Part shown: piece by piece, positions 14,709 through 44,437 of the stretch
Layout of the letters: every line of letters begins with the position of its first letter
Numbering within the stretch: the first letter of the stretch is position 1
Source of the DNA: Moniliella sp. 'wahieum'
Taxonomy: Eukaryota
Direction: 5' to 3'
NCBI GenBank assembly: GCA_003971905.1
Contig: RSEE01000064.1
Span: 1 to 64,000 of the forward strand
Length of the DNA: 64,000 bases
Program-made: the position numbers and the translations under genes
Notes under the pieces: generated by a model
What the model saw: the letters and a program-made list of their open reading frames with translations, nothing else
Databases searched by the model: none
Told to the model about the DNA's origin: nothing

Positions 14709-15715
14709 AGCCAACAGTTGCGCAGGAGGCACCCCCACCCTGTGGAGCCAGGTGCTGAGACTGTGGTTGGACGGAGCAGAGGCCTGTCCGTGCAGCTCTT
14801 CTCGCCTTCCTCCGTATCCGATCCGAGCAGTCATCAGGGGCATTTCCTGCTCTAGTTAGCATCACATTACGCACAGCATCTTCCATCTGGGTCTGCCGCT
14901 CGTCGAGCCGGAGATCTGGCAGAGCACGAGCACACAATTTGGCGGAGAGCCAAGCTGCCACAGGGGGAGAGGTCTCCCAGAGGTTAGCGCCTTGGTGGGG
15001 GAAACGCAAGGACAAAGGGTGGGTGTTGTGGAACGGCAAGGGGCTGGTGCCTGCGACGCCTGCCTGTCTCACGACGAGAGGGAGGATCAAGGGGTGGCGC
15101 CCGACAGGGCATCTAGTAGATTCATGCTTGATGAGTGATTGGTTGCCGTGGGTCCAGTCAGGGCGGACGGCGTGTTGAGAGCAAGATGGGTGTTGGTTGG
15201 CTTGACCAGAGTCACTTCAAGCGTTGGCCGTCGCTAACCAAGGCGGCCGGGAGTTAGGGTTGGACGACAGAGCGGCGCTGTGGTGCTCGAGGGCGAGCAT
15301 GCTGAGGTAAGACGGAGAGGCGGGGCACTGGCGCTGTGGGGGGGGCGGGGGCGGGGGGGCTCATGTCGGGATGGCATCGCCATGGACATCGACGCCGGCC
15401 GGCATCGGCAGGGCACTGCCGTGGCCGCGAGCAAGGCCAGGTCGCCTCCTCTCCGCTCTCTGCTCGCACGCGGCAAACACAACCCCACACGCAAACACAA
15501 ACCCCACACCAAACAGCCCGCACGCGACAAACGACGCAGGCGAAGGGCACACAAACCAGGGCGGACAGCTGGCAGCCAGCGGCACAGAAACAACACACGC
15601 CCAACCAGCAATCAGCACACAGCACAGACAGCACAACAGCACCCGCCCGCCCGCATCCGTCTACTCGCAGCTCTCAGACGCCGACGCCGCCGCCCAGCCC
15701 CCCCCCCCCTCCTCC

Positions 15716-18700
15716 ATGGACGCCGCCCCTCCCGCGTCCCCCCCGGCACCCCCGCCCGTCAGGGCGCCCACAGCCGACCATACCCCATCCCCATTCCAGC
15801 GCCACCTCTTCTCCATCCGCCTCGACTGGGAGTCCGCTTCTGCCTCGTCCTCCATCCGAGCCGTTACCCCTCCCCGTATCGATCCCAGCGGCGCCGCCGC
15901 CACCCCTCCGCCCGCATCTGTCTCCGCCCCTGCCCCTGTCTCCGTCCTCGCCCCCCCCCAGCGCCCTTCCCGCCGGGTGCCCCCCGGCCGATGGCGGTGC
16001 TGCTGCGGGTGCTTTCGCTGATGCTGGCGTCTCTGTGGAGTTTCACTTGGGCGAGCCAATGTTGCACCTCAGGGTGGGGAACGTGGTGTGCGTCCGGCGG
16101 GGGAGCGACGGGTACATGAGCGCATCCCAGATTTCAGGATCGCCAACCTGTCCGGGTCGAGGGCCCAAAGGTTGCGGAGCATGTCCTCACCGGCGAGCAC
16201 AAAAGGATAACGAATGGGCACGTCCGCTACCGAGGCACATGGATCCCCATTGAGAGTGCCATCCAACTGGCGGTGCAATGCAATGTTGCACACCTACTCA
16301 AACCACTCCTGGAAGCTGATCTATCATCGTTACCCCTTGCTCCACCTTCCCCTCGTCCCCCTTACCTGATATTGGTGGTGCCGCTGCTGGGACACCCGAA
16401 CGTGCTGCTACTGGGACACCTGATCGTGCTGCTGCTGGGACACCCAATCGTGCTGCTGGCACATCCTACCATGCCATTTTTGCACATCCTATGCTAGCGC
16501 CAACACGCCTCCTCCTACTGGCATCCACCTGGTGACCCACTGGAACCAGCCCGTATTCCAGCTAGTGGTACGCAACATTGCGTGCTTGCGGCGGGAAGCA
16601 GATGGGTACGTGAGCGCGACCCGGATCCTCAAAATTTGGAATTGATCATTCGAGAGAAGGTGCTCTCACGATTCCCAGCTGAGAACGCACTCACGGGCCA
16701 CCGGCGCGACGGCACGTGGATCCCACTTCAGGATGCCATCCAGTTGGCACCGAGCTCACGTTTTCCATCTGCTCGAACCGCTTCTCGAGCATGATCTGCA
16801 GTCATCATCACTCGTCTGCAAGTCTGCCTCTGAGCCACCACCCCCTCCGCCCCCAGCCTCCTTGCGTCTGTTCCATCCCACATGCCCGCCCGGTTCTCAT
16901 CCACTCACTGCTGCCTTGGGTGCGTCCAAAGCTGTTGAGCCAGCGATTGCACGTCTCCGCCGCGACGCACGCTTTGCCTCGGTCTGTCATTTTCTCGCCA
17001 CCTTCCAGCCTGCACTTGGGCTTGCCCCTCTCTCGCCCGCGCAGCTGGAACAGGATTTGGTCCATGGGTTGGCTACGCAGACAGCCGAGGTAATTCGCGT
17101 GCTATTGCGCCTTCTCACCCCTGGCACTGTCTCCCCTTCGACCTGGCTCAGTACCCTGCGCGCCGAGTATGATCTCCGCATGCCCTCCCATGCGCCTGGC
17201 TCGGATCCGACGAGCACCCACGCACGTTTGCATCTCTCCCCCGTTCCATCCAGCTCGGCGTTCTCCATGACGTCACGTCATGGTTATCCTTAGCGCCCGA
17301 TTGTATTCTTCGCGTAATGGGCGACGAAACCCATTCCACAAGAACAGTCCGACCCAATAGGGTGGGACCGGGACGGCAACTCGTACTACCTTATTGATAC
17401 GCGGTTGTGGGTACTGTATTCCCATTCGGATCAGTCTGAAGAGCCCCAGGTTCCCGCGGAGACGGAGGAGGCGGGTGCTTTCGATGAACCTGTAGGACCG
17501 GATGGAGGTGGAGACGGGGCCACAGAATCCACCTCTTCATCCGATGATGCATGAGCTCCATTTCCACCGAGGACATTCTCCTATTGTCGGGTCCGGATCA
17601 AAGAACAATCGAGCTCGTTGGCCCAAAACCCCTCCCCGTGAGCCACCACCTCAGCAGGAACACTGTTGCAGGAGGCTTTCCCTCAGGCGGGGACGACGAT
17701 ACGAGCACGGATTCGTCCTCGGGGGATGAGGCAGAGACACCCCCTCGACCCACGACGCCGGAACGCCCACCAGAGCACATGGGGGAGCAGCCCGAGGGCG
17801 AAGTGGATGAGACGGAACAAGTGGTTTACGATGTGCTTCAGTGCAAGCCGATGGGGACAAGCAAGCGCAGTTTGCGCGGTGGGACGAGCAGCTTGAATCG
17901 GACGCGATCGCACTCGAAGCGCCGCTGGAGGGCAAGGTAGAAATGGAGCTGGTTTGTTCCACCCGGGCTGAGTGGGAAGCTTTCTTCTCTGCCCTCCACC
18001 CGCCGCCGCCCAATACCGAAGAGGGGGGAATGACACAAGACGCGGACGAGGCAAACCTGTTTGCCTTTTTGTCGAGCGGGCCGCTGGACAAGATCTTCAC
18101 TGCTGTCGATGCCCAGGCCAAGGCTGAAAAAATCCAGGCAACCCAGGAAAAAGCGAAACTGATGGAGGTTGCGCTAGGCTCGAGGAAGCGCTCGTCTCGC
18201 ATCGTAGCGCAAGAAGAAGAGCGGGTTCGGCGCGACGCGACGGTCGAGGAAGAAACGGCACAGGGACCCGAGGAGAAAGCACAGCGTACGATGGCGAATG
18301 TCAAGCGGAGGCGGCCAGCAGAGAGCCAGACTAAAAGGCGGCTGTTTTGCGCAGATCAAGAGCGAGATGGAGCGGATCGAGGCTCGGCGCATCTACATGA
18401 GAGCATGGCGTGCAAGCAGGGCCAGAAGGCAGGTGAGGGGCTTCTCAAAGTCAGGCGCGGCGGGTGCCAACCCAAAAGATTGCGGTGCCTGCCTCCACCA
18501 GCACCCGATCGATCGCAGCGGAAATGGGGTTCTTCGACTGTGAGGTGTGCGGACGGATGGGGCGCCTGCCGCCGCCTAGTTGGCGGATGAAGGCGTGCGC
18601 TGTGTGTGGCGTTCTGCACCATGTGCGCTGCTGGACCAACTATCTGATTCGGCAGGACATTGCGCCATCGATGGGACTCGGACGCCTTCTATTGCATCAA

Positions 18701-18896
18701 ACACCGCCCCGAGCCCCTTCGCCAGCGCAATGGCGGCATCCCTGAGCCGCCCGACCAGGAGCGGAAGAGGAAGAAGAGGGCGCAGCGCGCCAGTACAATG
18801 CAACAACGCGTGCTGCCTGTCGAAGGGGATATGTCCGTCCCAAGGCTGCCTCTCCTCCGCTGCCCCCGTCGCCACTACCATCCAACCAATCCGTAG
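15716..18896 (+). CDS. Tandem KilA-N/APSES x2 - DDT - WHIM - PHD chromatin protein (frameshifted)
   Basis: APSES1 at about 16030-16320 (CVRRGSDGYMSASQI..RYRGTWIPIESAIQLA..HLLKPLL). APSES2 at about 16525-16800 (CLRREADGYVSATRILK..DGTWIPLQDAIQLA..HLLEPLL). DDT-like LRRDARFASVCHFLATF; WHIM-like PIGWDRDGNSYY and ELVCSTRAEWEAF; PHD CEVC..CAVCGVLHHVRC..FYCIKH. Confidence 0.75.
16378..16466 (+). repeat. 24-bp tandem repeat, about 3.5 copies, between the two APSES domains
   Basis: Unit approximately GTGCTGCTRCTGGGACACCYRAWC, repeated. One frame reads AAAGTPER-AATGTPDR-AAAGTPNR. Confidence 0.85.
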
Positions 18897-19345
18897 TCCT
18901 GGCCCCGCGGCACTCCTCCCGCCTTGCGTCCAGGCGCACGGTGACCTCGTACGCCGAATCTCCCTCGCCGTCCCCGCCCTCGCCTCAACCCCACCCCAGC
19001 ACAGTCCTGTGCGGAATCCATGGATGGGCCGATACCTCCGCCGGTGGAGGGGCAGGATACGCCTCGTTCTCCTCCGCCCTGGAGCCGAAGGAGGAAGAGA
19101 CGATGTATCACTAGCTCGCAGCGACTGTTTCCATTGTATGAGTCGCGTTTCGTCTCTGCGGCGAGGTGGCGAATGGTCGCTTGAACTCCTTTCTTGCAGG
19201 CCCTGTGGGGCTCTGTGTGTATAACAATGCATCCACTTGCCGAAGTCCCTCTGCTGCTCCGGCCATGACCAGCTCAATAACCCCCACTCGGCCAGTATCG
19301 CTAGCAAAAATATAGATTCCACAGCAGTTGTAGCACAACCCCCAC

Positions 19346-20788
19346 CTACGCTTCGACAAACGCACGGAACACCTCTACTTCCTCCCCTGGCTGGACTCGC
19401 CCATGTGTGCGAGCCATGATGGTCAGCGGTACGCCGGTGCCGCGAACACAGCTGCGCCCTCGTCGATCTCCAGCCCGCCCTCTGCGTCACCGAGAGGAAA
19501 GTGATCTGCACATGTCCTCGCGTCGCCAGCAACACGGACGGTCCCTGGATCGCGCGGTGGGTCTCCTCTGTGCCCTCGACGCTGGGCAAAACCGTACGCA
19601 GCACGCGGAAATCGTCAATCGGAGGCCGGTACAGCATCGTTTTGCCCCCGCCTCCCTCCCACGGCTCGCGATGCATCCGCATCTCCTCGCCTGGCGCATC
19701 CTCGTACGTTAGCATTTCCACCAACGTCGCCGTGTCTCGCAACTTGGGTGTCAGCCCCGCCCGCACCACATTGTCGCTCGCCGCCATGCACTCCACCACC
19801 TCTCCCGACAGGTAGGCGTGCGGTGTGTTGGCACCCAAATAGAGCGCCTCGCCCGGTACCAAATGGAGCAAATTGAGCAGATAGGTGCACAGAATGCCCA
19901 CATCATCGGAAATTGGGATTGGAGGGCAAGAACTTGCTTCGAAATGCTTGGTGTCTCGGTAGGATGGAGGGTGCCTGCCTCGTATCGTGCTATCAGAAGC
20001 TCGATTGTATCCTTCACCATTTCAGGGGGAGCCGTCATGATCGCTTCAAAAACGCGACGGAGGACGGCTTTGTGTTCTGCGTCGGGAGTGTCGCCGTCCA
20101 CTGCATGGCCCACATATTGCAACAAGGCATTCTCTCCATGCCAAGCCCACGGGCCACCAGCCCGCGAAGCTCTGCAATGTCATGCAAAAACTGATGAATC
20201 TCCCGCAGAGGGCGGAAGCCACAGAAACCGTGAAAGGTAGTCAACGCTACCACCATCTCTGGCTTGTGGTTGTCGTCGCGATAAATGTCGGGGTGCGAAG
20301 CGTGGAGACGCTGGGCCAGTTGCTTGTCCGGGTGCGCCTGGACGGACAAGGCCTTTCCGACGCTAAGCACCTTGAAGAGGAACGGGAGGGGCGACTTGCC
20401 CTGCAATCCGTACTTGTCCACCACGCCTTGCGACAGCAACGCGGGGTGGGCGCGGAGGTAGGCGCCGAGCTCGATGCGGGCACTGTCAGGCGGCGCGACG
20501 CGGGAGGCTTGATATAGCACGGGCCCGAGGGGTGCGAGCCAATCCAGAGCTGGGCATGCGCGTGGGGGTCAGCGGCGGCGGATGCGGGCTGGGCGCGGGG
20601 AGGGAGCGCACCTCGGCATAGGGCGTGGCAGGGTCGTAGCCGTGGGGGCCCAGCCAGGCGGCGCCGGTGCCGTCAAAGGCATAGTGGGCGACGAGGGCCG
20701 TGGCGCCGGGCATGCCCCACGCGTACGTCTGCATGCCGGGGGCGATGTGGAAGACGGGGCCGTAGGCGCCCAGGTCGAGCGCGGACAT
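19346..20788 (-). CDS. PMI40: Mannose-6-phosphate isomerase, class I
   Basis: QTYAWG, PYAE|LWIGSHP, LPFLFKVLSVGKALSVQAHPDK, DDNHKPEM, PHAYLSGEVVECMAASDNVVRAGLTPK, and C-terminal EVFRAFVEA*. Intron at about 20550-20611. Confidence 0.95.
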
Positions 20789-21400
20789 GCTGGTGGTGCG
20801 GCGGGGGAGGCGAGGGCGCATGCGTGCGCATCTGTCGTATATACACGGCCACGCCAGCGCCCCTGATGGCGCGGTGTGTGATGGCCATCAGGGGCTGCGC
20901 GCCTGGGCGGAGTGGCCCAGCGCCCAGCGCCCAAGCATGCCGCTCCACACACCGCCGCCGTGCCTGCGGCCCGAGCCACTCTTTGCTCCGCAAGGCGGCC
21001 GACCAGAGTGACTAGTCAGCCTAGGCGCCTGGCCATCCCCTCGATGCCGTCCATACGCCCTCGGAATACAATCAACGCGACCATCACCACCACGGGGCCC
21101 ACCACCACCACCTTCGCTTTCCTCTTCTCTCGGCTCTCTTCGTGCTGTCCGTCCTTTCCGCACGCTCGAGCCATCCACATGCTTACCCCCCTCGCCCTCT
21201 CGTCTTTCGCTCGGCGCTTGCCGGTGTTGGGCAGCCATGTGCATGCCCGCCTCGCCAGGCCCGCGCCATTGTTGCTCTTGGGCAGTCTAGATGCTCAAGC
21301 TCTCAAGGCCGAGACCACCTACCTGCACCCGGAAGATGGTTAAATGCATCATCATCAACCATCTCGATCATCGCGTTGGCGGAGCTTGGCCCCCAACGCA

Positions 21401-23097
21401 TTATATACCAACCCAGCCGGCGGAGCACCACACTCCCGCCCTCGCACCTTCCTCTTCACTTCTTGCGCCCGAGACGCTCCGACAGCTCGCGCTGCGCCAG
21501 ACGCTGCCCGCGTTCTTGCGCCGGCCCTGCGCCACGAGCTCATCGAGACGCGTCTTCAGCAGCTCCGTGTTGTCCGCCAGCGGGCACTCCGACAGCGGAT
21601 GGTACGGTGTCGCGTGGCACACCCCGCACTCTTGCACCTTGAAAGCCGCCCCTCCCCGCCGGTGCTCTTCCGCGCCTTCTTTGCCGGCGCCTCCGCCTCC
21701 TCGCTCTCCACCCGGCTTTGTTCGGGCGTCTCACCCGTCCCCATTTCCACAGCGACGTTCGTCGGCACCTCGTCACCGCCAGTAACGGCCGGATCCGCCT
21801 CCAGCGCACGTTTCTGCGGCGTCTGGGAGGCACCCATACCGGGCGGACGGCATCCAAATCGAGGGGGAGGGAAGACGGGTTGGTACGAGTACGATTTCGG
21901 CGGCTTGATATGGATCGCCACCTCCTCTGGTGCCCAGGGGGGCAAGGCTTTGATCTTGTGCTCAAAAGCAGTGAAGTCATTCTGGTCATGCAGCTCGATC
22001 ATCATGCCGCGGTACACATATGCCAACACCAGTGGGTCCGACTTCTTCAGCTTCAAGCGGTTCCGCACAAGCCTCCGTTGCAGACAACGTGGGGATGTCT
22101 GTTCTAGCGTTAGTACAAGCTTAAAATCGAAATCAGCGAGCCACATACCCGTAAGCAAGCGTGAAAACGTCGGGCCACCTAGCACGACAAAGTTAACCGT
22201 TCCTGAGGCAGGGCGAGCAGGTACCGGCTGAGGAAGGGGGAGCGACGGCAGCGACGGTGGAGGAACGTCGGCGCTCGGGGCGTCGGCTTGGCGTGCGGAT
22301 TTGCGCGTCTTGCGTACCGGGCGCTGCCCCGATGCCAGGGGAGCCTCATCGCTCGATGAACCTGCAGCCGCCGCGGCCGCCGCGAGCTCAGCTAGCTCCT
22401 TCTTACTCGGCCGCCCACGCTTCCTTGGGGTGGTAGTAGGCAGCGCAGCTGGAGCTTTGGTGCTGGCGCGTCCACGTTTTTTTACCGTCGGCGCGGGTGT
22501 GGTGGTACCAGCATTCCCGTTTGTCTCCTTGGACGCGTCTTCGGTGACAGGAGCAACCTCTTCATGTGCAGGCGCGGCCTCCGGCTCCTCCCTCCTTGCA
22601 TTCTGACTCTGGGGAAGCGCCTCCGGGCCAGACTCCCCTGTAACCAAGGATACCTGCGAAGGGAGCTCATCTACCTCGGGCTCAGGTTCCTCGGCTGCAG
22701 GCTGAGCATCCTTCTGAGTCGATTCCTCAGGCTCGACGTGCGGCTGATCCTGAACCTTGGACGCGTTGGTTTCCAAGCTGGCCTCCACCTCTTGCTGCGA
22801 TGGCTCGACAAAGCTCTCCTCGGCAAGTTGGGCGGGCTCCTCATCATTGGCGGTAAAGACAGTGTCGGTGGTCTTGTCACGAGGGTCGATGCTGACCTCA
22901 GCCTCGGTTGCATCGGCGTAGGTGCTGGTATCGGCGGCGTCCTTTTTCTTGCTGTCCTTGTGGTCCCTGCGCTTCTTCTTGTCACGACGCTCCTTTTTGC
23001 GGCCGTTCTCCTTCTCCTTGTCCTTGTGGTCCTTGTCTTTGTGGTCCCTGTGCCTGCGTTTGCGGGTACTGTCAGGCTGGGAGAGGCTGGGACTGGG
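21401..23097 (-). CDS. Hypothetical nuclear protein: K/E-rich region, AT-hook motifs, PB1-like segment, C-terminal Zn knuckle (5' exon not resolved)
   Basis: KKRGRA and PRKRGRPSKK AT-hook-like motifs; LVLAYVYRGMMIELHDQNDF; CGVCHATPYHPLSECP. Splice acceptor (CTGAC..CCCAG) at about 23075. Confidence 0.55.
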
Positions 23098-25173
23098 ACG
23101 GAGTGAGAGTGGAGTCAGGCATCTCGTCAGAAGGTACGTCGCCGCGGAGATAGCGATAAAGACTCGCTGGGTCCATGCGATCCCTCTAGAGGGTGATTTT
23201 TGGTCAGACGTTGGTTTAGGCAGGCACTCAAAAGCCGAAATGGGAAATGCGTACCAAAGCGAGAGACGGGTGGTGGGAGGCCAAAAAGGAATTTGGGTCG
23301 TAAAACCGAACATATCGAGCTGAGTGAATTGTTGGAAATTGAATTGGGGAGTTGGCTGCAATTGGGGTCTAGCACTAGCCCAGTCTCGATGTATTCCGCG
23401 AACGAAGCAGACTGAGGAAAAAAAGAGATCGCACAGATTTATTCCGCCAAAAATAGCTTTTTCCCACGGCACTGCGGCAGTTCTCTCACTCACTCGGCTA
23501 GGCTGCACGCTCGAGCCATGCCCTCTCTCCCCCCGTCTTTCTCTCCGCCTCGGTAGGAGGGGGTTGCTGGAACTGCGAATGAGGGATCTGTAGGAGGACA
23601 GAGAGCAGGTAGTTGATCGTGCATTGCATGGCACATGAACTACAGAGAGGCCAGAGAATATTCCTGCCGGAAGGAATATTGAATGCACCGAAGGGAGAAG
23701 CGAGCTTGAGCTACCGGTGCCACTACGCCAGTGTGGCACAACAAATATACCCAGCAACCGGAAAATAATTGGTGGCGGGTTGATGTGTCTGTGGGCATGT
23801 GTCGAAAAGCGTACCCAAACAATTGCAGCCCTACCCATAACATCTGCTGAATGCACGGCTTCGCCACCCATATTCTTGGAAGCAGAGCCCACAGAATCGC
23901 TTCCAGAGCTCCCCATGTAGGCTGTCGTCGTTCATTGGCCAACATTGGGACGGCCGGTCAGTGACCACCCGTCACTGTCAATGCGATTCGATACACAGAA
24001 GAGCTGGCTCCTAACGTACCAAACTAGAATGCTTTTTGTGGCCGCCGGGTAGCGCCAACTGAGAAGCACCTCAGTTGGACGTGCGAGAAACAACAGTTGC
24101 CTTGTGCGGGGGGGCATCATCCGTTCCCGAGAGAAAAAAGACAACTATTAACATGTGAATTCTGTCGTGCATGTATATGCACAAAGTACTGCTCTGAGTA
24201 CTCTGACTGAGTACTGACGATGCAAATCAGTACCAGTCGCCTTGGGCTTCAAGATTGCACAAAAAGCATGGGATCTTTTCAATACTGAGTCACCGGCTTC
24301 ACCGGCTGATCTTTTTAGCCACGCCGCTCTGGCGCAAAACTTGGATAGTACTTGAACATCTTCCCTCCTGCGGAAGGGGGATTAAGCTATGAAGTCTTAG
24401 GCTGGACTGGCTGTACGTACGCTGCTCTCGTTGCGCGTTGCTCGCCCCTCGGCACAGCGCTTCCCCAGCCCCCCCACACCTTGAGAGTCGCTAGTCATTT
24501 GTGGCTGTGTGGTAGGACAGAAGAACTCCACAGCTCTGTCACATGTAAGCCGCCAGCAGCACACTCATGATCAGCGACACGCCAAATTATTATCGAGCGG
24601 GGCCTCTCCGCTTCCCCGCCTGCACTCAGCACCGTGTGTGCCGCAATGTAAAAGCGCTAAGCACTCTGCCAAACCAGCTCCCACATCCGGACTCGAAGCG
24701 ACAGCCGACGTCTGGGTGCTACTTGCCTCATCCAGAGAGAGCTGGCGTGAGGCCTGACATCGGTAAGCTCAAGGCTCTTTTGGGCGCGATCCAGGACGCC
24801 TGCGGCGGATATCGGGCTGGGCAGATCAGATTGGACAGTAGAGTGAGACGGGGCCAGGGGCCAGTCACTAGCTCTCCGTACTCAGTACTCACGCATGGAG
24901 GGGGTGGACATGGCGAACGTACGTGTGCGCGTACGTGTGAACATGTGAACGTAGCCGTGGCCAAGCGCGCCAAACAGTCTGCGCCACCGCCGGCAGCCCA
25001 AACATTCAATATTCACGATAGGGGCTGGACCCTGGCCTTCTCCACCAACGCCACCCCGCCAGCGGCAAAACATTCTGCGCCCAGTGGACATTCGTCGCAC
25101 ATCTGCGCATCCACCCCCGCGTCCTTTTAACCCGCCCGCCATCCCCCTCGCTCCGCTCCCCCCCGCCCCCACC

Positions 25174-27762
25174 ATGCTGCTCTTCAGTGAAGAGCTTGCC
25201 CTTGGCGCCCCCGTCCTCCGCGAGAGCGTCCGCTACTGGCAATGGCGCGACAGCTTCCTGGCCTACTGGACGGTCCACTCTGACGTTGTCTCCCTCGAGC
25301 TGCAAGGCCGCATCATCGAGTCCGTTACCCCCGACACGGGCAATCGTCTGCGCCGATATGCCCACGACGCCGTCCTTCTTGCTCTGGGCGAATCCATCAT
25401 GAACGCGTGCAGCACATCCGCCTCCTCTCCACCGGGCATGCCATGCTCCAGGAGCTTGATGGCTGCATCGGCCGCCCGCTGGATCAGCAGGCGTGCCAGG
25501 AGCTGAATGCGCTACAAAAGTGCAACCTCGCGCCGTATGTGATGTCCTTTCCTCCTTATGTTACACAAGGCCCAGCCGCACTGACACTGCATGCTTCTAT
25601 TCGCAGTCACGAATCCTTTGCCGAGTTCCGCGCTCGGTTGCGCACCACCCTCGAATGGGTCGAGACGTACGGGTACTCGACCGGGGAAGACCACAAGTTC
25701 CTCCATCTTCACCGCCAGTTCTTGCCCTATTACCCCTCGCTCTGTGATGCCTACCTGGCCCGCTTTGTCGATATTGTCAAGCACCGCAAACGTCTCGAGT
25801 ATTGGGACATTGATTCGGCTGCGGCCGAGCTGGGAGAAGTGGAAGCGTACCGAGGCTGCGCTCACCACCCTCCTCCTCGACTTTATCGTGGCGGGTCGAT
25901 GCGGAGGACAAGGGTGTGCGCACCCTCCCCACCAGTGTCGGTGAAGGAAGTACCTCCTCCGCCTCCTGTTGTCGTCCCGGTGTCCCGCACGATTACCCCG
26001 CCCCCGCCTAGCGTCCCGCTTCTCGACCCGATTGACGAGCATCGCACTCTGCGTGTCGCTCTGCTGGCCACTGCGGAGAAGGACTCAACCACTGACCCCA
26101 ACCGGCCGACAATCCGGCAGGCGATCACTGGGCCCCAATGCCAACACCTGGCTTTCTCTCATCAAGGCCGAGATGCATCACCTGGAGGCGATTCATACGT
26201 GGGATTGGTCGACTGGGCCAAGCCCGAGATGGCCCTGGTGCGGGAAAGAAACAACTGCTCACGCCCCACTTTGTTTGCAAGGCCAGCCCAGGCGAAGGCG
26301 GTGGGGTGGTACGGCAAGTCCACCTTTCCGCTCGTCACTCGCCCCGACTCGCCAGCCCAGCGTCATGTCACTGCGCACTGTGTTGGCCGTGTACGCAAAG
26401 CACAGCTTGGATCTGGTCCTGCACCACTTTGATTACCTCAATCCCTTCCTCCATGAGGAGGTGGAGGAGGACATCTACATGTCCCAGCCCCGGGTCTGGC
26501 GGTGCACCCCATGGACATGGTCGAGCCCGTGTTCAAGTTGCGCAGGGCATTGTACGGGGTGGACGAGGTGCGCAACAGCTGGTCTCGCAAGCTTCAAGGC
26601 GCGTTGGAAGGTCTGGGCTTCCACCCGATCGAGAACAACGAGGGGATGTACTTCCACCCCAGCCTGCATGTTGTGATGGGCGCGTATGTGGACGAGCTGC
26701 TGTGCATTGGTTCGACGGCCGAAGTGCATCTGGTCGAGGACTTACTTAAGGACCTGCTTCACCTCCGCAACGGTCGGCCCCTGCGTCGCCTCGGCACCCT
26801 CGAGGTCCACGTCGACGAACATCGCATCCGCCTCAACCAGCAGGGCGAGATCTTACGCCTGCTCACGCGCCTCGGGGTCGAAGGGGTGGATGTTCCGGGC
26901 CTCCCGCTGCCGCTGACGCCAGTGAGCACCCACGACACGGACGTGGACACCTTCATTGCCGAGCCGCCGCTGTCGCTGACAAAGCAGCAGTGGTACACCT
27001 ACACCTATACCAAGCTCAAGGCGCTGGCGCATGCGACCCGGCCCGACATTGCTTACACGCTGCTGCGCCTGTCTCCGCGCGTGCACCCGATCCTGGGGCG
27101 GGAGGACTATGCGGCGCTCTGGCGCCTGCTCTTCTACGTCAAACGTACTGCCCATGCCTCGCTCACCTTTGGTGCGTACGGGGGGGGGTGGAGGGTCTGC
27201 TGCCGGACAGCATGCCGCCGACGACAGTGCCGGGACAGCTGACGGTGCATGCGTCAGTGGCGCCTGCGCCCGTCGTGCCGCCCGACGGCAGCCACCACTT
27301 TGTTGGGGGTGCGGTGATCTACCTCGGCTCGGCTCCGATCCACTGGTACTGGTCCTTCCTCAAGGACGAGCCGCAGGACACGACGGAAGCGTGCTATATC
27401 AATGCGGCGCAGGCGGTGTACATGGCCTCGCACCTGCGCTCGCTGTTGGCCGCACTCACGCCGTCGGTGCACCACGGTCCGCGCCTTGGCGGACGCATGC
27501 CGCAGCTCTACCTCTCCAGCCGCGAGGGCGTCGCCGAGCTCCTCTCCCCCGAGGGCCGGATTGGGTTCAGTTCGGACGCCAAGGTGGGCAAGTGCTACCG
27601 CTACGTCCGCTCCCGCATCTTCCCCATCTCCCACGACCGCTTCCTCGACCTCAATGATACCTCTTCCTGGCCCCGTCGCTGGCGCGCGGCCTGGTCACCC
27701 GCCTTGAGCGGGAAGAATTCTTTGCATGGCGCTACTCGATTCGCGTCGAACTGCAAGACTAG
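25174..27762 (+). CDS. Ty1/Copia-derived Gag-RT-RNase H fusion with substituted catalytic residues; no protease, integrase or LTR seen
   Basis: Gag-like N-terminus, then a Pro-rich linker. RT segments PTIRQAI, SLRTVLA, HHFDYLNPFL..EEDIYMSQP, KLRRALYG, YVDE, ATRPDIAY. RNase H-like GAVIYLGSAPIHW..TTEACY. Confidence 0.8.
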
Positions 27763-29557
27763 CCTCAGATCGCTTTTTTGATTCGGATCGATGGGATATC
27801 CTACCTCCTTGTCTGGGGTAGGCAATCCCTCTCCGCCCCCCTCTGTTCCTCCCCTCCTGCCCTCCCCCTCTCCTGATGTTGATGATGAATGTGTGGATGC
27901 ACGAACCCGGATATAGAAAGATCCCCCCCCACCCCATGCGATTGGAATCCATCTCCTTCAATTCAGGAACGCTGTGGTGCGGCACGTATAGGCCGAGGCG
28001 TCTGATTGGCATGTATATGCCAGTACATGTACAGTTGTACAAAGAGACGGCAACACAACGAGCTAGCCACTCTCCTTGAGGTAGTGGTACACGAACGATT
28101 CGCCTCGGCGCTCTCGCATGCCGGGAGCATCGTGGCGGGCAGGCTGGCGGCCGAGGACCCGTCGGCAGGCAAGGCGAGATGGCAGCCGAGCTGCGATGGT
28201 CGACGGACGCCGCCATCAGTTGTACTAATTAGCAGTTGGCAGCCAGCTTGGCCGCGACACTGTCCTGCACGCGCCCCCACCCCACTGCTCCAGTGCTGCC
28301 CCGCCCTTCCGCTCAGCCACTCGCCGTGAGTGCTGCCGCTTCCATGGACCATTCTTGGAAAATCTCTTCTAACCACCCTCCCGCTCTCTCCAGTGGAAAT
28401 GGGTCTGCCAAGACGGGGGAGCACGGACGCCGCATCACGTGCCACTCCGCAGGCCAGGGGCCGCGGGTGTGGAGAGTGGCTGCACAACCGCGACGGCTGG
28501 AGGAGCGCTGGCGAGCGTGATGGTCGGCATGGGCATCTCGATCAACGTGGCGTCACGACGTCACATCGATCGCCGGCATCAAGCTCAAGAACTGCTGGTA
28601 GAACAACACTACGGCAGCCACGGCTGCTGCTGTGAGCACTGCATGGCTGCCAGATACATGTTCCAAAGTCTCGTAGAATAAAGGGGAGCCCCCCCCGGCA
28701 CCAAAGGATCGGCGGTCACCGGACCGGTCAGGCCTCAGGCAAGCCTCAGGGGAGATGGTCCATGGAGGAATGGAACGAGGCGCTTGCTCCAGACGCTGGT
28801 GGTGGGAAGCAATTGGTCCATCCGGGTAACGTCATTTCAACGCATCCAGCGTAGCCAGCTGGCCGTCAGTCGGGCGGGAGCACACCATGCGTCAAAACAG
28901 CAAGCGCAGCAACCCTAGCTAGAGTAAAGCACTGCGACGTACTTGTGAAAATATATACTGCACCAAAGTCGATCGGAGCACGCCATTGGGTGCTTAATCC
29001 CCCTTGGGCCTTAGGTCTTAGGCTTAGGCCTTATGTGAGACGCCCCCGCACGGCGTGGAGCAGCTCCTCGGCTCAGCTCAGCGCCCAATGCTAAACGCTC
29101 AACGTCAACGTGCTCAGTCCATGCTGCTCGCGAGCACAAGCACACTCTCCACACAACCCCACGAGTGTATCCAGCGAGAGACCCGTGGCTCGCAATCTGC
29201 CCTCTGCCGATGGGTGTCTGCATCTGTTGCAGTGTTTGCGATTGATAGCCGGCAGAGATGCCTTGTGGTTCGCTTGGCTGGGGCGGGAACAGAGTGTGGA
29301 TGAAAGACACCGATCTTATTGTACTCTGTGCTGTATCGACGTAAGAATATCTTTGGACGAGTAACGTCTCGCGTCATCTATACTCTGGTAGAGAGACTCG
29401 TCAAGCTTCCAGGTGCATGCGCCGATAGGTCTTTATTGTTAGCCTTTTGAACCAGCCGAGGCGCAGCAGTGCCAACAGTCGACGTATGTTGGCCACGCAT
29501 GGTTTTAACCCCATCATCAACTCATCCTCGTCCTTTCCGCAACCACCACCACTCTCC

Positions 29558-30549
29558 ATGTCAACCTACGCGCCGCCTACCCCCTCCATCATCCTCGACG
29601 CAGGAGCGCCGATAGCACCGCCGTCTCAGCCGGCTGATCGCCTCCCTGCTCCCGTTGCTGCCACTGCCACTACTACTGCCACTGCACCATTTTTTCAGCC
29701 AACACCTCCCGCTCACCCGCCACCGCCCACCACCAGTTGAAATGGCCACGGCCGAATGGGCACCGTGGGTTTCCCTCCTACTGCAGAAATCGCCTGTGGC
29801 CATGGGCCAAGGAGCTCAGATCCTGGCCAACCGAGCACCGCATCCACCCGTTCCTCCCCGCCGCCAATAAGAGGAAGAAGAGTAAGACACCGTTGGTTCC
29901 TATCAACCCGCTCACGTCTGGCAAGATGTCGCGGACGCAAAAAGAGTGCGATCATTGTCAACTTGCGTCCGGGTGCACCGCTCCTGCACCGCTCCCCACG
30001 GAGCATCACTGCCTGGAACCTCCCCCGGCGCGCCGGGCCCAGGAGTACCCTCCGACGCCACGGCTGGAAGAGCGGATTGACAGCAGAATAATATGCGGCT
30101 AACGAGGAAGAGAAACGACGGAGGAAACTTTAGCAAGTGTACGTTGTTTACATGGGGCACTTTTGCAGATTCTGAGAGGAATTCTGACGGGTATGCATTG
30201 CAGCGCCGGTTCCGGATTAAGAAGAAGCGCGCGCGAGACGGCGCTCGAGGAGGATGCACGGTGGTTACGCCAGCGTCTGCGAGAGTTGACGGCGGACAAT
30301 GCGCTAAATCGAGCGGGAGAATGCGTGGTTTCGCATGGGCCTAGTGAACAAGGATCCGGTCCTTTTTACTGCCGTCGGCACGGTCCTGCCGAATGCGGCA
30401 GCCGCCAGGCCGTGGAGAAGTTTGCGGAGAAGTGGGTGCCCTTGTCGCCGCTCGGCATGGAGCACCCTTGCCCCCACCCATCAACGTACCCGAGGCCGAA
30501 TAGTGCCAATGCTGCGGCCATTAGGGGTACATTGTACCACACTACTAAC
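29558..30549 (+). CDS. Hypothetical protein (Pro-rich N-terminus, Cys motifs, probable intron)
   Basis: MSTYAPPTP... followed by KECDHCQLASGC. Possible intron at about 30137-30168. No family recognised. Confidence 0.35.
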
Positions 30550-31057
30550 TAGAGTAGTCATTTGGATTGTTCTTGACCGTGTATGTGCACCGCTGGACTT
30601 TAATACGTTCGTCTGAACCCAAACGAGAGCACGAAGTGGCATCGAGTGTAGACGTCGACAGCGCTGTGGCGGCAGCTGAAGTAGCCCACCGTCCAATTAC
30701 AACCAGAGCGCAGCTGTCACAGTGGTCTGCATGACTCGATAGAGGTCGATGAGCGGTCACTACTAAAAGATGCCTACCATAGTCCGTGGTCACCAGCCCC
30801 CTCCACAGCCCGTTGGGAACAAGGCGGTCTCTGAGATCCGGTGGCGAATCAAATGGCGTAGGCGTGCACGTGATTGACTGCGGAATTAGGAATAACCCTA
30901 GTGCGGGACTGCATTGCCGCAGCAGTTGGCACGACCCGTGTGTGTCGCCCGCTCTAATTTTATTCACCGGTAGGGTTGCGCCTGCCCGCCGCATCCTCGT
31001 GGCTGTTCCCCCTGCGGCTAGCTCGGCTGTCTTCCCACCACCGCCAAGTTCATCAAG

Positions 31058-31718
31058 ATGGGTCGTCGTCCCGCGCGCTGCTACCGCTACTGCAAGAACA
31101 AGCCCTACCCCAAGTCGCGCTACAACCGTGGTGTGCCCGAGCCCAAGATCCGCATCTTTGACCTGGGCCGCAAGCGTGCGTCGGTTGATGACTTCCCCTT
31201 CTGCGCCCACATGGTGTGCGACGAGCACCAGCAGATCACCTCGGAGGCGCTTGAGGCGGCCCGTATTTGCGCCAACAAGTACATGGTCAAGACGGCCGGC
31301 AAGGACGCTTTCCACATGCGCATCCGCGTGCACCCCTTCCACGTGATCCGCATCAACAAGATGCTCTCGTGCGCTGGCGCTGACCGTCTGCAGACGGGTA
31401 TGCGTGGTGCCTGGGGCAAGCCCTACGACACGGTGGCCCGTGTCGACATTGGTCAGGTGCTCATCTCGATCCGCTGCAAGGACAGCAACAAGGCTGCTGT
31501 GCTCGAGGCTCTGCGTCGCTCCCGGTACAAGTTTGCTGGTCGCCAGAAGATCATTGTGTCGAAGAAGTGGGGCTTCACCCAGCTCGACCGCACCCAGTTC
31601 ACCCAGGCTATGGCCGAGAACCGTATCATCAAGGACGGCTGCTACCTCCAGTTTGTCAAAACACGGCCCCCTCGTCCAGAACCTCAAGCTCCACCAGCGC
31701 GCTGCTGCCCAGCAGTAA
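31058..31718 (+). CDS. RPL10: 60S ribosomal protein L10 (uL16)
   Basis: [27 protein letters not shown]...[21 protein letters not shown]. One frameshift at about 31660 gives the C-terminus [12 protein letters not shown]. Confidence 0.98.
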
Positions 31719-32489
31719 GTGGGTTGGATGCTTGCCTTTTTGCGTTAAGGAGTCTTGTTTCTTTAATCGGTCGAAGAGGCTTGACTGGTCTTGCCTCACT
31801 GATTTGTTAAGGAGTCTCGTCTCTTGAATCTAAAAATGTTGAGTTGGGTTTACCCCTATCTTTCCCCCCCATCCCCCCATATCCGCTTATGATACTAGGC
31901 ACCTACGTAGCTGATGCAGTCACCGCGGAAAAAGGCATTGCCTTGGGACGGTTGGTCCTGGCTGTTTCCTGGTTGTGGTTGATGGAGAGCAAGCGGTAAT
32001 GTCAGGTTATGAGGGCGGACCTGCCATATGCCTCTTCGACACCGCGAGCTGCACGTGCTGTTGCAGGGTATCAGCTAGGGCGCGCTTCGTGAGGGTCGAT
32101 CGGCAAGGTGTACGGGCATGCCTGGCTAAGGCCTAACGGGAATCCCACAGATACGACCTACAGCGCGATGAAAAATAACCCCCCCCGGGCCGATGGTTGA
32201 AGAAGCCGAACCGACAGGTGTGAACACAGGACCACACTCTGATGGTCGATGGCGCCTAACATGTGACCAAACGGGACCAAAGTCCTAGAGTCCAAGCCCC
32301 CCCTCCAACAGGGAAAAGAAACGATATGCGGCGGAAGAAAACAAGGGGGAATGGAAGATGGGAGGTGGGTGAAATTATCGACAGATAGCGTACTTCTTTG
32401 TTGGCGAACGAGGTCGGAAGTTAGATTCTTTTGGAATGCACACATCGGCACGCACTATCTACTACTTGTATTTCATGAGATTATCGTAA

Positions 32490-32584
32490 GCTTCAATGGG
32501 TTAGTGGTATACTACATCGTTGCCAGACTGGTCTCGTGCCTGTAAGACGTCGATGTGACAGGGGTTCGATTCCCCTTTGAAGCA
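32490..32584 (+). tRNA. tRNA-Gly(GCC) with 24-nt intron (32526-32549)
   Basis: Acceptor stem GCTTCAA/TTGAAGC, anticodon stem CATCG/CGATG around TT-GCC-A, T-arm AGGGG-TTCGATT-CCCCT, then a T-run Pol III terminator. Confidence 0.93.
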
Positions 32585-33250
32585 CTTTTTTGGTTGCGGC
32601 TAGATTAAATGCGCAGTCGCCCTTTCCCCTCGGCATCGACTGCCAATTGCATGGGAAACCGAAAAACCTATACCCTCTCCGCGTCGCTTTTGTTCCCTCT
32701 TCGGTATTTGTCCCTGCACACCACGATTTCATCCCGCCCGTCCACAACACCCACGTAGCAGGGTTTGATACCCCCGATGAATGCTGGGGGGGCACAGGAA
32801 TATCTTCTCTCGCCCCCCGCGCGGAACCGGCCGGGAACCGGCTTCCTGCGACTGTATCTAGACGGCACAACAACTGGATCGGGATTACCAGCTGCCCGCC
32901 ATGCACCTGATCCAAACGAGAATACAATAGACGCCCAACGCGGACAAACCCAGGGCGGGAAACAAAAAAAGAAGAAAGCACACACACTATGCCCGCGAGC
33001 GTATCAGCATAGTAGGACGGGAACGAGAGAGAGCAAAGTAGTATCAACGCATTGTATCCGACAACGGAGGGGGGGAGGGATCGGAGAGGGAGAGAGGGGC
33101 ATGGATTCACCAGGTTTGAGGTGCGAGCGCGTTCCTTCCCCACGGGCAAGCAGGCAGTGAATGAAGGCTGTGCTCTTGCTTCGAGAGCATGAGCAGAGGG
33201 AAGACAGGCGACACGCAGTTTCTCCTGCACGGCGACAGAAGCGATTCCAG

Positions 33251-34295
33251 TTAAAACGTAGCTCCCGCCCCCGTTGTAGCATGAGCCGCTGCGGCCGCCG
33301 CGGCCGTAGCGTCGAGGCTGCTGGTCGTGGCGTGGGGGCTGGACGTGAAGGCAGTGGAAGGAACGGCGGTCGATGTGGTCGGGGCAGCGGCAGCGGCAGG
33401 TACGGTGGTGGAAGTGGCCGAAGCCGAAGCCGGAGCCGGGGCAGGGGCAGAGGACGAAGTCTTGGCCGGGGTAGCCGGCACTGCCGCATCGAACGACAGG
33501 ACCGAATTGGCGTACCGAGCAATGAGGTCGCGGGTAGTGAGGTAGCCCTTGCGGACTGGGTCCGGGCAGCGCGGGTTGCGACTGAGCGTGTCGAGCTGGG
33601 TTTGGACCTGGCCAAAAGCGTGACGCGTGAAGGAGCTCATGACGAAACGGAGGCGCATAAAGTGGGCAAACAGGAGCGGAGCCAAAAGCGAGTTGCGCAA
33701 CGCGATTGCGCCCAAAAGGAGACGGGCAAAGATGACCACTTCGGCGTAGGCGACAAAGCGCATTGCTGGGTTGTAGGTGGTCTTGACCCAGTTCTGGATC
33801 AGGGTCTGCACCCTTTTGGGATAGGCCGAGGCGGCGGCGCTCTGGGACGATGGGGGGAAGGCAAGGGGGATAAGGGTGGGCGGGGAAGAGGTGAGGACAT
33901 GGAAGAGGGAGAAGACGACAAAGGGAACCAGCGTGATGGGGATGGGGGTAGAGTAGGTCCACAGCCAGTAGAACGACAGGACCAAGTACTGCACATTCTC
34001 ATCCAGAAGGATGCGGTGCAGACTGGCCTTGGACAGCTGCGGCCGGCCAAATGACTTGTAGACCACGATCCCGTAGCTGACCAATGCGCCGAGGTACGCG
34101 ATGACGTAGGATGCGGTCGCCAGCCTGGCGGCCCGCATCAAGACGAGCGTCCTGATCAGCGCCCAGGCGCCGAAGAAGAGCGTCAGGATGTGGCCGCCGG
34201 CCCAGACAAGATGAGGCGCGCTGGCAGAGGGGCGGGACTAGGGCGGGGTTAGGACTGCGCGCAGCGGCGAGAAGGGAGTCGTGTGGACGTACCAT
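33251..34295 (-). CDS. TMEM33/Pom33/Per33-family ER and nuclear-envelope membrane protein
   Basis: HLVWAGGH, YLGALVSYGIVVYKS, LLDENVQYL, LVPFVVFSLFHV, HFMRLRF. ATG followed by a GTACGT intron with a CCTAAC branch point. Confidence 0.88.
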
Positions 34296-37911: not shown

Positions 37912-38502
37912 GGGCGTCGAGGAGCGGTGCGGGCGGCGTGCCGATGCATGGGGGCGACGGGCGGGCAGAGGGGCGGGTGCCGCGCACAGTGCTGCGGCGC
38001 GCACGCGAGGCGGCCCTGCCGCGGCGCTGCGGCGGAGTGGGCGCGAGGCGCACTGAGTCCTGAGTGTGGACGATACAAGCGATCGTCGCCGTCGATATTC
38101 CGTCGATAGTCCGTCGATAGTCCGTCGTCCGAGTCGCCGCTGAGACGATCGGTGCGGTCGATCGGCGTGGTCAGTTGGCCAGCGAGTAGCGCCGTCGGAG
38201 CACAGTGGCCATCCAGCAGGCCGCACACGCACGCTGACATAACCGCGCCCTGCCTCTATCGGTGCCATGTCGCAGCCCAGTATAGTACAGTACAGTCTCC
38301 CAGCCGCACAGGCCATGGCGACGCTGCCCGATAGCCGATAGCAGGCAGCCCCACCGCCACCCCCATCCCATCTCAGATCTCAGATGCCCACGCTGCGCAC
38401 CCGAGCAAGCGGCGAGCGCAGCACCGACGCCGCCCTCGCCGCCGCCGCGCCGCCGGCACCGCCGCGCTCGCCAGCCTGCCCGCCGCCGCCCCCGCCCCCG
38501 CC

Positions 38503-41521: not shown

Positions 41522-42080
41522 CCTTTCGTGGTGGTCCGCAGGGGGTAGGCCGGTTAGGGGGAGCGATCACTAGGACTAGAGTGACTAGTGACCGCTGGGT
41601 CCAGAGGGAGGCTTTGAGGCCCCACAAGCGAGATGAATGAATATGTACCAAGTGAAACCGAGGTGATCGATCCGATGACCGGCGAGAGGGGTGAGGCGAT
41701 TCTGGCGAGTAGGCGAAGTAGTAGCACTTGTGCAAGTGAGGCCTTTGAAAAGAGGTGGTTCGGGCACAATCCCTGATCTCTGGTTGGCCGCAACAGCTGC
41801 CCGGTCGCTGCCATCGCTGGGGACTATAGTTGGAACGGCACTGGGCTCTCTCTACGTGAAGGTAAGAAGCTACGGAGACCAAACAGCCAACCTCGACGGA
41901 GTATAGAAAGCAACATCGAGCCAAACATTGGAATTCTTGCAGTACAACGGCCTCGAGAGCCTATCTAAATTCGAGTGAGAACCGTGAGGAGGGGGGAATG
42001 CGCCGATGAAAGGGATGAACAACAGGAAAGGGGGAGACCAGAACAAGTGCGAATAAACTGCTCACAATTAACAAGGCAGT

Positions 42081-44076
42081 TTAGTCCACCTCCTCGACCG
42101 ACGGGCCATCGTCCCCGCCGGCACCGGGAGCCGCACCGCCCGGGAAGCCGCCGGGGCTGCGCCGCCCGGCGCCCCGCGCCCGCATACAGCTTTTGCATAA
42201 TGGGGTTGGCAATTCCCTCGAGCTCCTTCTGCTTGTCGTCGTACTCGTCCTTGGAAGCTTCCTGCGAAGCGTCCAGCCACTCAATCGTCTCCGAGATGGC
42301 CTTGTCCAGCTTCTCCTTGTCGGCCGCATCAATCTTTTCCGACACACCTTGCTCGTTGAGCGAGTTGCGCAAGTTGTACGCGTACGACTCGAGCCCGTTC
42401 TTGGCGCTGATACGAGCCGAAGCAGCCTCGTCCTCTGCCTTGTACTTCCGCGTCGACACCATGCGTTCAATGTCTTCCTTCGACAGACGACCCTTGTCGT
42501 TGGTGATGGTGATCTTCTGCGACTTGCCCGACGACTTGTCGGCGGCCGAGACGTTGAGGATCGAGTGGCGTCCACGTCAAACGTAACCTCAATCTGGGGC
42601 ACGCACGCGGGGCAGCGGGATGCCAGACAGCTCAAACTTGCCAAGCAAGTTGTTGTCCTTGGTGCGGGCCCGCTCCCCCTCGTACACCGAATCAGCACAC
42701 CGGGCTGGTTGTCGGCGTAGGTCGAGAAGATCTCCGACTTCTTGGTAGGCACAGTGGTGTTGCGCTTGATGAGCGGCGTGAACACACCGCCGGCCCGTCT
42801 CGATACCCATCGACAGAGGGGCAACGTCGAGCAGCAGCAGGTCTTGGGTCTTCTCCGACGTGTCACCCGACAGGATGGCAGCCTGAACGGCAGCACCATA
42901 GGCGACAGCCTCGTCGGGGTTGATCGATTTGTTCAGCTCACGGCCGTGAAGAAGTCCGAGAGCAACTTCTGCACACGAGGGATACGGGTCGAACCACCAA
43001 CCAGAACAAATCGTTCACTGACCCTTGTCAATCTTGGCGTCACGGAGGACCTTCTCGACAGGATCGATAGTATGGCTGAAACAGGTCACCGCACAGCTCC
43101 TCGAAACGGGCACGGTGATCGAGGTGTAGAAGTCAATGCCTTCGTAGAGCGAGTCAATCTCGACCGTGGTCTGGGCGGCCGAGGAGAGGGTGCGCTTCGC
43201 ACGCTCGCATGCAGTGCGGAGACGGCGAAGGGCACGGGCATTGGAAGTGAGATCCTTCTTGTTCTTGCGCTTGAATTCCTGGACAAAGTGGTTGACAAGA
43301 CGGTTGTCAAAGTCCTCACCGCCCAAGTGGGTGTCACCCGCAGTGGCCTTGACTTCAAAAATGCCCTCCTCAATGGTCAGCAGCGACACATCAAAGGTAC
43401 CACCACCCAGGTCAAAGATGAGCACGTCGCGCTCCCCGTCAGTCTTCTTGTCGAGACCGTAGGCAATGGCAGCGGCCGTGGGCTCGTTGATGATGCGCAT
43501 CACATTGAGACCAGCAATAACGCCAGCGTCCTTGGTAGCTTGGCGCTGCGAGTCGTTAAAGTAAGCGGGCACAGTAACTACACCGTCCTTAACGTCGCCG
43601 CCGAGGTAGGCCTCGGCCGTCTCGCGCATCTTGAGTAGCACCATCGACGAGATTTCTTCCGGGGTAAACTTCTTCGTCTCACCCTTGTATTCCACCTCGA
43701 TCACAGGCTTGCCGCCCACGTCAACAACCTTAAAGGGCCAGTGCTTCATGTCGGACTGCACTTCTGGGTCGGCGAATTTGCGGCCAATGAGACGCTTGGC
43801 GTCAAACACCGTGTTGTGCGGGTTCATGGCCGTCTGGTTCTTGGCGGCATCGCCAATGAGGCGCTCCGAATCGTTAAAGGCAACATAGGAGGGGGTGGTG
43901 CGGTTGCCCTGGTCGTTGGCAATCACCTCAACGCGGTCGTTCTGCCAGACGGCGACGCAGGAGTAGGTGGTGCCGAGATCAATACCAACCCTGGCGGAAG
44001 GCAAAGAGAAGGAGGTCAGCACCGGGGGTCTTGTGTCGGGGGGGAGGGCGGGGGAGGAGGCACATACCTTGGTCAT
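42081..44076 (-). CDS. HSP70: Cytosolic Hsp70, SSA type
   Basis: [37 protein letters not shown] and C-terminal GPSVEEVD*. Intron at about 43991-44067 after MTK. Confidence 0.98.
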
Positions 44077-44420: not shown

Positions 44421-44437
44421 AGATGCTTCGCGAAGCA
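44421..44437. promoter_or_regulatory. Possible heat-shock element upstream of HSP70
   Basis: aGATgcTTCgcGAAgca, alternating nGAAn-like units that include the 14-bp palindrome TGCTTCGCGAAGCA, about 350 bp upstream of the ATG. Confidence 0.35.

Follow-up and report, generated by a model that had tools for sequence, protein, structure and literature searches.

A probable host gene of Ty1/copia origin in Moniliella sp. 'wahieum' that joins a Gag-like region to an apparently non-catalytic reverse transcriptase-RNase H

Positions 25174-27762 on the forward strand of a 64,000-nucleotide stretch of Moniliella sp. 'wahieum' DNA (contig RSEE01000064.1, positions 1 to 64,000; hereafter the window) carry a Copia-derived gene in which a Gag-like N-terminus is followed by a Pro-rich linker, a reverse transcriptase (RT)-like domain and an RNase H-like domain. 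Based on sequence comparison, we consider it probable that a Ty1/copia element was domesticated in Ustilaginomycotina to give this low-copy, non-catalytic host gene. A first-pass annotation of the same DNA had proposed that a Copia gene in which Gag directly adjoins an apparently dead RT-RNase H was co-opted by the host. This proposal gained ground in our analysis, since the same architecture and the same losses were found in five further lineages, and co-option is also backed by a single clade on a long stem, a predicted intron, the lack of long terminal repeats (LTRs) and a frameshift control in a neighbouring HSP70 gene.

The gene starts with an ATG at 25174, preceded by CCACCATG, and ends with a TAG at 27760-27762; its 5' leader (25125-25173) contains TTTTAA (25125-25130), a C-rich tract and CCACC ahead of the ATG. 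These elements of the start context had all been pointed out in the first-pass annotation and were all read in the sequence. In a frameshift-aware alignment, the homologous protein P0006 begins at a Met that matches 25174. Exon 1 (25174-25534) encodes the N-terminal Gag-like region with this conserved Met start and has a 1-bp frameshift near 25399; it is followed by a candidate 72-nt spliceosomal intron in phase 2 (25535-25606). The first part of exon 2 (25607-25894) encodes the C-terminal Gag-like region (HKFLHLHRQFxPYYPxLC...KHRKRL...WKRTE; frameshift at 25833), which is 54-78% identical between lineages. The linker (25895-26033; frameshifts near 25894-25922) lies where Copia elements carry protease and integrase; in the homologues it varies in length and contains 17-30% Pro. 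The RT-like domain (RVT_2; 26034-26969) was recognised by Pfam, alignment, structural model and Foldseek; it keeps motif A as FDY, has shortened fingers and has lost the KQ of motif B, and the frameshift-aware alignment placed frame changes at 26130, 26206, 26247, 26336 and 26488. A connection block (26970-27179; TKQQWY...TRPDIAY...EDYAALWRLLFY.KRT), the best-conserved stretch of the protein, leads into the RNase H-like domain (27180-27762), in which all four DEDD positions are replaced, ARGLV stands near the C-terminus and frameshifts occur at 27180 (in a G run) and 27668. The order of Gag-like region, Pro-rich linker, RT and RNase H had been noticed before and is the same in all family members. 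If the frameshifts are assembly errors, the actual gene would comprise two exons and about 840 codons.

Homologues were found in two sequence searches and one profile search. A search of 5.8 billion proteins with a 261-aa RT piece of the window gave 4094 candidates, among them three family proteins, P0001 (692 aa, 80% identity), P0002 (898 aa, 50%) and P0003 (821 aa, 49%). A second search with whole-length P0002 (8000 candidates) returned the same three plus one plant Copia protein at E 1e-6. A profile of P0001-3 was then compared to 1.84 billion representatives, giving 16450 matches at E of at most 1e-3, only 9 of which reached E of at most 1e-30. This search added P0005 (E 1e-149), which covers the C-terminal half of the protein, and P0006 (E 6e-83), which covers the N-terminal half. 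After a gap, P0007 came next (E 2.5e-50), an intact Copia pol fragment that has LYGLRQ, YVDD, DAD, EAEY and ADGLTK and whose C-terminus is integrase SH3-like; ordinary Copia polyproteins ranked behind it. In total, long open frames with this architecture were present in five other lineages, all of them from Logan assemblies, at 42-80% identity. The homologue clusters comprise one to five members on one or two contigs each. Between lineages, the connection is 66-97% identical and the folded domains 44-78%, compared to 32-39% for the linker.

The phylogeny was inferred from 50 RT-RNase H rows, namely the window (with an X at each frame break), four family proteins and 45 Copia proteins; several of the Copia rows are long-branched and support values derive from a quick search. 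The family forms one clade (support 100 in the Shimodaira-Hasegawa-like approximate likelihood ratio test, SH-aLRT), sister to P0007 with a support of 98; its stem is 3.34 changes per site long and its crown branches measure 0.11-0.61. A single origin, a burst of change and later constraint on the folded parts are what domestication predicts. The contrast between folded domains and linker, the long stem with its short crown, and reading frames that have stayed open over 692-898 codons at 42-50% divergence are indirect signs of purifying selection, and neutral evolution would hardly account for such frames.

Pfam recognised RVT_2 in two of the seven frame pieces of the window (E 8.3e-10 and 0.0033) and in the homologues at E 1e-10 to 1e-15, spanning profile positions of about 61-238 of 244; for comparison, the true Copia protein P0004 matched at E 6.5e-76 over profile positions 1-243. 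Catalytic residues were assessed in an alignment of four family proteins and the window with 13 Copia pol proteins, two of which account for misses on the Copia side: P0012 was trimmed at a wrong YVDD and is poorly aligned, and P0004 lacks part of RNase H; both were counted as misses. The first RNase H Asp (DAD) is present in 12 of the 13 Copia proteins, the Glu (EAEY) in 11, the third Asp (DN) in 12 and the fourth Asp (ADxLTK) in 12. None of the four residues is found at the aligned position in any of the four family proteins or the window, which confirms the earlier claim that all four are replaced. The Glu is exchanged for Ser, Thr or Cys, the third Asp for Ser, with an Asp one residue later in three of the five rows, and the fourth Asp for Arg or Gln. 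In the RT, motif B [KR]Q is present in 13/13 Copia proteins and in 0/5 rows of family and window. Motif C reads YVDE in three of these five rows, NVDE in one and YVDD in one, compared to YxDD in the Copia rows, which were selected on this motif. In addition, the fingers motif KARLVAxGxxQ...FAPV is about ten residues shorter in the family, whose members retain the motif A Asp as FDY. In the window, YVDE is encoded by TAT GTG GAC GAG at 26685-26696 and TEACY by 27383-27397, just as had been read in the first-pass annotation. Judging from these residues, the RNase H of the family is clearly dead and the RT very probably so; the inactivity of the RT we infer from the loss of motifs. Of the previously proposed dead RT-RNase H, the RNase H part can thus be upheld, and the RT part stands in the weaker form set by the retained motif A Asp and first motif C Asp.

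According to structural modelling, the RT and RNase H folds are retained. An AlphaFold2 model of P0003, based on a 43-row alignment, had a mean predicted local distance difference test score (pLDDT) of 73.5, with mostly more than 85 for residues 209-821 and less than 45 for the linker (residues 70-208). A Foldseek search of the PDB with this model retrieved the RT of Ty3 (4ol8, E 2e-6) and the RTs of Moloney murine leukaemia virus (MMLV), cauliflower mosaic virus (CaMV), xenotropic murine leukaemia virus-related virus (XMRV), foamy virus and human immunodeficiency virus (HIV) with probabilities of about 1.0. The template modelling (TM) scores were low, at 0.16-0.30 of the query, which is expected when the query chain has several domains. 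A PDB sequence-profile search yielded 18 matches at E of at most 1 (best 0.52), all of them to GABARAP/Atg8; we regard these as chance matches and rejected this identity because the region aligns convincingly to the C-terminus of Copia RNase H (KHIDVRYHFVRE versus AKVGKCYRYVRS).

Structures associated with mobility were missing from the locus. No direct repeat of at least 40 bp that could represent an LTR pair was detected between positions 15000 and 40000 of the window, and blastn of the 5-kb flanks against each other (20000-25300 versus 27600-33000) gave a best match of 26 bp at 81% (E 3.6). CCHC, protease and integrase motifs were found in none of seven family proteins, whereas CCHC and protease were present in all three Copia controls; Pfam likewise detected no protease, integrase or zinc finger domain, RVT_2 being the sole family in P0001-3, P0005 and P0152. 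The first-pass annotation had listed the Zn knuckle, protease, integrase and LTR pair as absent, in agreement with these scans. A second copy of the gene was not detected in the window by tblastn or blastn; the gene is therefore single copy within these 64 kb. P0002 gave weak tblastn matches to Pro-rich coding stretches at other places in the window (e.g. 15440-15995, 38159-39376 and 61251-61885), which were discarded as low-complexity matches, all of them in the Pro-rich linker (residues about 119-268).

The candidate intron has GTATGT at 25535-25540, a CTGAC branch site at 25581-25585, 21 nt before the CAG at 25604-25606, and a length of 72 nt. P0006 lacks exactly 25535-25606 and reads ...CNLQPNETF, compared to ...CNLAP|HESF in the window if spliced. 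In the open reading frame (ORF) of P0002, the similarity is lost upstream of exactly the 3' splice point and a Ser (AG+Y) stands directly ahead of NETF; the window, when read through the intron, likewise has a Ser (cAG|T) ahead of HESF. P0002 thus fits a read-through of the 3' splice site at the same place and in the same phase. The intron is predicted from its signals, which are present in the DNA, and from the homologues, and a conserved intron within coding sequence does not sit easily with a retroelement that replicates. The 3735-nt contig that encodes P0005 and P0006 lacks this first intron, and about 30 residues are missing at RT motif A between its two halves; this contig may represent a transcript that retains a second intron, or contain an error.

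These observations also bear on the question of whether the gene might be a non-autonomous Copia derivative that is still mobile with a helper in trans and merely low-copy. Its descent from a transposable element is clear, and one of the homologue clusters has five near-identical members, as such a derivative might. We nevertheless regard this explanation as very improbable, since LTRs are absent from the 5 kb on each side, the window holds a single copy, an intron lies inside the coding region, the short crown branches follow a long stem, and a helper-dependent element need not keep about 840 codons open over 42-80% divergence with its catalytic residues gone.

The nature of the N-terminal region was more difficult to establish. 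Pfam gag families were found in none of the seven frame pieces of the window and in P0006 not even at E of at most 10. Since Pfam gave no gag family, the N-terminus of the family was compared profile to profile (hhalign) with 31 Copia Gag N-termini taken from database matches. This comparison gave a match with a probability of 86.4%, an E of 4.7e-6 and a score of 42.2 over P0006 residues 78-169, compared to scores of 11.7 for the reversed query and 16.2 for the best of 30 column shuffles. In the ESM Atlas, P0006 residues 1-230 gave a weak lead only: a cluster at rank 13 scored 0.91 and had Retrotran_gag_2 on 10% of its members. Thus, the assignment to Gag is supported, not strongly, by sequence profiles; of the Gag-like region described in the first-pass annotation, the resemblance to Copia Gag was recovered by the profile match, and the suggested Pfam check of the Retrotran_gag_2 type was negative in the window pieces and in P0006.

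Several observations weigh against a domesticated host gene. First, the assignment to Gag hangs on one profile-profile match at a probability of 86%; the AlphaFold2 model of the Gag part, made from a 5-row alignment, was poor (pLDDT 46.5, all-helical), and Foldseek with this model gave no match at E below 0.5 (best E 0.5). Second, the RT retains the Asp of motif A and the first Asp of motif C, and the Glu in motif C could still bind metal. Third, all homologues are Logan proteins, none of them an annotated gene, and P0005 and P0006 are both encoded on one 3735-nt contig and apparently represent one gene split in two. The lack of annotated family members may have either of two reasons, a clade without annotated genomes or a gene hidden by repeat masking. 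Fourth, the window holds no single intact ORF but 10-11 one-base frameshifts, with no stops, and the nearby genes RPL10 and TMEM33 have no obvious frame break.

The last point raises the alternative that the gene is a true pseudogene in this genome, with real frameshifts, and the family perhaps functional elsewhere. Ten to eleven frameshifts in 2.6 kb would fit such decay, and the absence of shifts from RPL10 and TMEM33 indicates that errors are not uniform. When P0001 was aligned to 25100-27800 with a frameshift-aware aligner (alignment span 25722-27747), we obtained 10 one-base frame changes (at 25833, 25894, 25922, 26130, 26206, 26247, 26336, 26488, 27180 and 27668), no stops and 505 identical residues out of 664; alignment of P0006 added one shift at 25399 and merged two others, hence the total of 10-11. 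The same aligner was applied to the essential HSP70 gene 16 kb away, which is split into five frame pieces whose Pfam and DNA coordinates are contiguous. Compared to the Pseudozyma flocculosa orthologue P0159, it showed 10 frameshifts, no stops and 556 identical residues out of 628 over 43989-42086, corresponding to 5.3 frameshifts per kb versus 4.9 per kb in the Copia-derived gene. All 10 one-base frameshifts of HSP70 were located in the 3' 1.0 kb of that gene. In the OPT transporter gene, the frame changes at least once, near 7770 on the forward strand, without an intron. Homopolymers of at least three nucleotides were found within 6 nt of 9 of the 10 shift sites in the Copia-derived gene and 6 of the 10 in HSP70, compared to 43% of background positions.

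Since the essential HSP70 (10 shifts in 1.9 kb) has the same shift density, the shifts in the Copia-derived gene look like noise rather than decay, and the unbroken RPL10 and TMEM33 indicate that this indel noise is patchy. Moreover, no in-frame stop occurs over about 840 codons at 76% identity to P0001 once the shifts are bridged, so that the stop-free frames described in the first-pass annotation hold; by our own rough estimate, several stops would be expected in a pseudogene of such an age. Sequence comparison thus indicates that the frameshifts are most likely assembly indel errors, and a pseudogene is the least probable of the readings that we weighed. The frame change at the G run could also be bridged by another intron of 86 nt at 27172-27257 (GTGCGT...CTGAC...CAG), which was rejected because the homologues encode residues across this stretch. 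Given the patchy indel noise of the assembly, any pseudogene call in the window needs a control.

The window has a GC content of about 60% and is gene-dense. In a Pfam survey of 147 stop-to-stop ORFs of at least 154 aa, we identified an OPT transporter (about 6.5-9.7 kb, forward strand), phosphomannose isomerase (18579-20568, reverse strand) on the PMI40 side of the Copia-derived gene, RPL10 (31022-31807, forward strand), TMEM33/Pom33 (33254-34237, reverse strand) and cytosolic HSP70 (41968-44457, reverse strand), as well as Pcf11, MRP-L47, an aspartyl protease, Pmp3, GH79 and a VTT protein. The best named orthologues of HSP70 are 92-93% identical (Pseudozyma flocculosa, Testicularia, Thecaphora, Tilletia, Ustilago, Violaceomyces and Acaromyces), which places the DNA in Ustilaginomycotina, at some distance from any annotated relative. 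The divergent upstream neighbour, 1.2 kb from the ATG of the Copia-derived gene, is a 791-codon stop-free frame at 21559-23931 on the reverse strand with low-complexity stretches rich in Lys, Glu, Pro and Ala and without a Pfam match. Three successive ORFs at 42085-44574 on the forward strand, lying exactly antisense to HSP70, match PF10712 ('NAD-specific glutamate dehydrogenase') with E values as low as 1e-51; as we take PF10712 to be a known artefact family antisense to HSP70, there is no real gene here. ARAGORN called a 97-nt 'tRNA-???' with a four-base anticodon at 53847-53943 on the reverse strand, possibly a tRNA with an intron, or else a false positive. The tail of RPL10 (31700-31807, forward strand), following ...DGCYLQFVK, is rich in Pro and Arg and presumably differs from the usual RPL10 C-terminus; the 3' end of this gene may hold another frameshift.

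Most known domesticated retroelement genes are Ty3/gypsy capsids in animals. Fungi and bdelloids also have domesticated RTs, the rvt genes, but these belong to a different, non-LTR-like lineage. In kind, the gene described here is most similar to mammalian RTL1 (PEG11). RTL1, however, derives from Ty3/gypsy (Metaviridae) and retains a protease domain, whereas the Moniliella gene is fungal, derives from Pseudoviridae and has Gag joined directly to RT without a protease, and the two have no sequence relationship beyond the RT superfamily. The autonomous Ty1/copia element represented by P0007 shares RVT_2, the TRPDI of the connection, the RNase H fold and the GPNS..W and WD.VDW motifs with the family; it keeps LYGLRQ, YVDD, DAD, EAEY, ADGLTK and the integrase SH3-like end, all of which the family has lost, except for YVDD in one row, along with protease and integrase. 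Like the Moniliella gene, p22/p18 and Drt2 of Saccharomyces cerevisiae are fungal and derived from Gag of the Copia superfamily, and they act without catalysis, as we suppose for the Moniliella gene. In the literature, p22/p18 are described as Gag-derived restriction factors of Ty1-family elements (PMC4599808, PMC8458377) and Drt2 as an endogenized, host-resident factor that acts by poisoning of the capsid lattice (PMC12530519). These proteins consist of capsid C-terminal domains only and lack the RT-RNase H that the Moniliella gene carries in addition, and they have no detectable sequence similarity to its family; p22 is encoded by the element itself, and the restriction role of the Moniliella gene is a hypothesis. 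Wang and Han (2021) reported three gag co-options from ascomycetes and Tremellomycetes, of which two derive from Copia (PMC8321522). Of these, Crtg12 and Crtg13 are presented there as single-copy fungal host genes from Copia that are conserved above the family level, similar in kind to the gene studied here, but as gag-only by description and from Pleosporales, Mytilinidiales and related groups, whereas the Moniliella gene adds RT-RNase H (PMC8321522). In those passages that our full-text literature search returned, no Copia-derived Gag-RT-RNase H host gene was described, the fungal cases being gag-only Copia co-options and yeast p22 and Drt2.

We suggest the following origin for the gene. An internal deletion would have taken out the nucleocapsid knuckle, the protease and the integrase, and would have joined Gag to RT-RNase H via a disordered Pro-rich linker; the LTRs would have been lost and a spliceosomal intron would be present. 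A burst of change would then have erased the active site of RNase H and the motifs with which the RT handles dNTPs, and the protein would thereafter have been conserved in at least five further lineages, probably acting without catalysis, as a capsid-like and nucleic-acid-binding scaffold. By analogy to the lattice poisoning by Ty1 p22 and Drt2, the Gag part may co-assemble with the Gag of an element, and the dead RT-RNase H, carried into the particle, may there compete for the primer-template. Since the kept fusion of Gag to RT-RNase H suggests that particle targeting matters, we favour trans-dominant interference with related Copia elements as a working hypothesis on function, albeit a tentative one. 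Its most specific form, an ancient, host-owned 'Trojan horse' in which the fusion of Gag to dead RT-RNase H enters the virus-like particles of its active relatives by contacts between the Gag proteins and poisons both the capsid lattice and reverse transcription, is more doubtful.

About equally likely as trans-dominant interference, and thus equally tentative, is a domesticated protein with a cellular nucleic-acid role, such as the binding of RNA:DNA hybrids or structured RNA (at R-loops or telomeres) or the packaging of RNA in the manner of Arc and PEG10. The connection and the RT-RNase H core, rather than Gag, are best conserved, and the RT-RNase H fold is predicted with high confidence and kept despite the loss of the catalytic residues, as would suit such a role; domesticated retroelement genes with cellular roles are also known (PMC11011659, PMC8321522). 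On the other hand, its substrate is hypothetical, the retention of Gag on RT-RNase H is most easily explained if particle targeting matters, and P0007, representing the closest intact Copia lineage, is still present in databases.

If interference of the 'Trojan horse' type proved true, the gene would encode a two-pronged restriction factor of a kind not described for any retroelement, and this factor could stand in for other genome defences in a fungal lineage with compact genomes. Since no family member is an annotated protein, such genes are likely masked as repeats before annotation, and an error-rich assembly can make a live gene resemble a relic. A fusion of Copia Gag to RT-RNase H that is conserved, with disabled enzymes but intact folds, would be the first such case from Pseudoviridae known to us. 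It would represent a fungal counterpart of RTL1, in which the remnants of RT and RNase H likewise lack an explanation, and the family offers a tractable system for asking what use a dead RT-RNase H may have.

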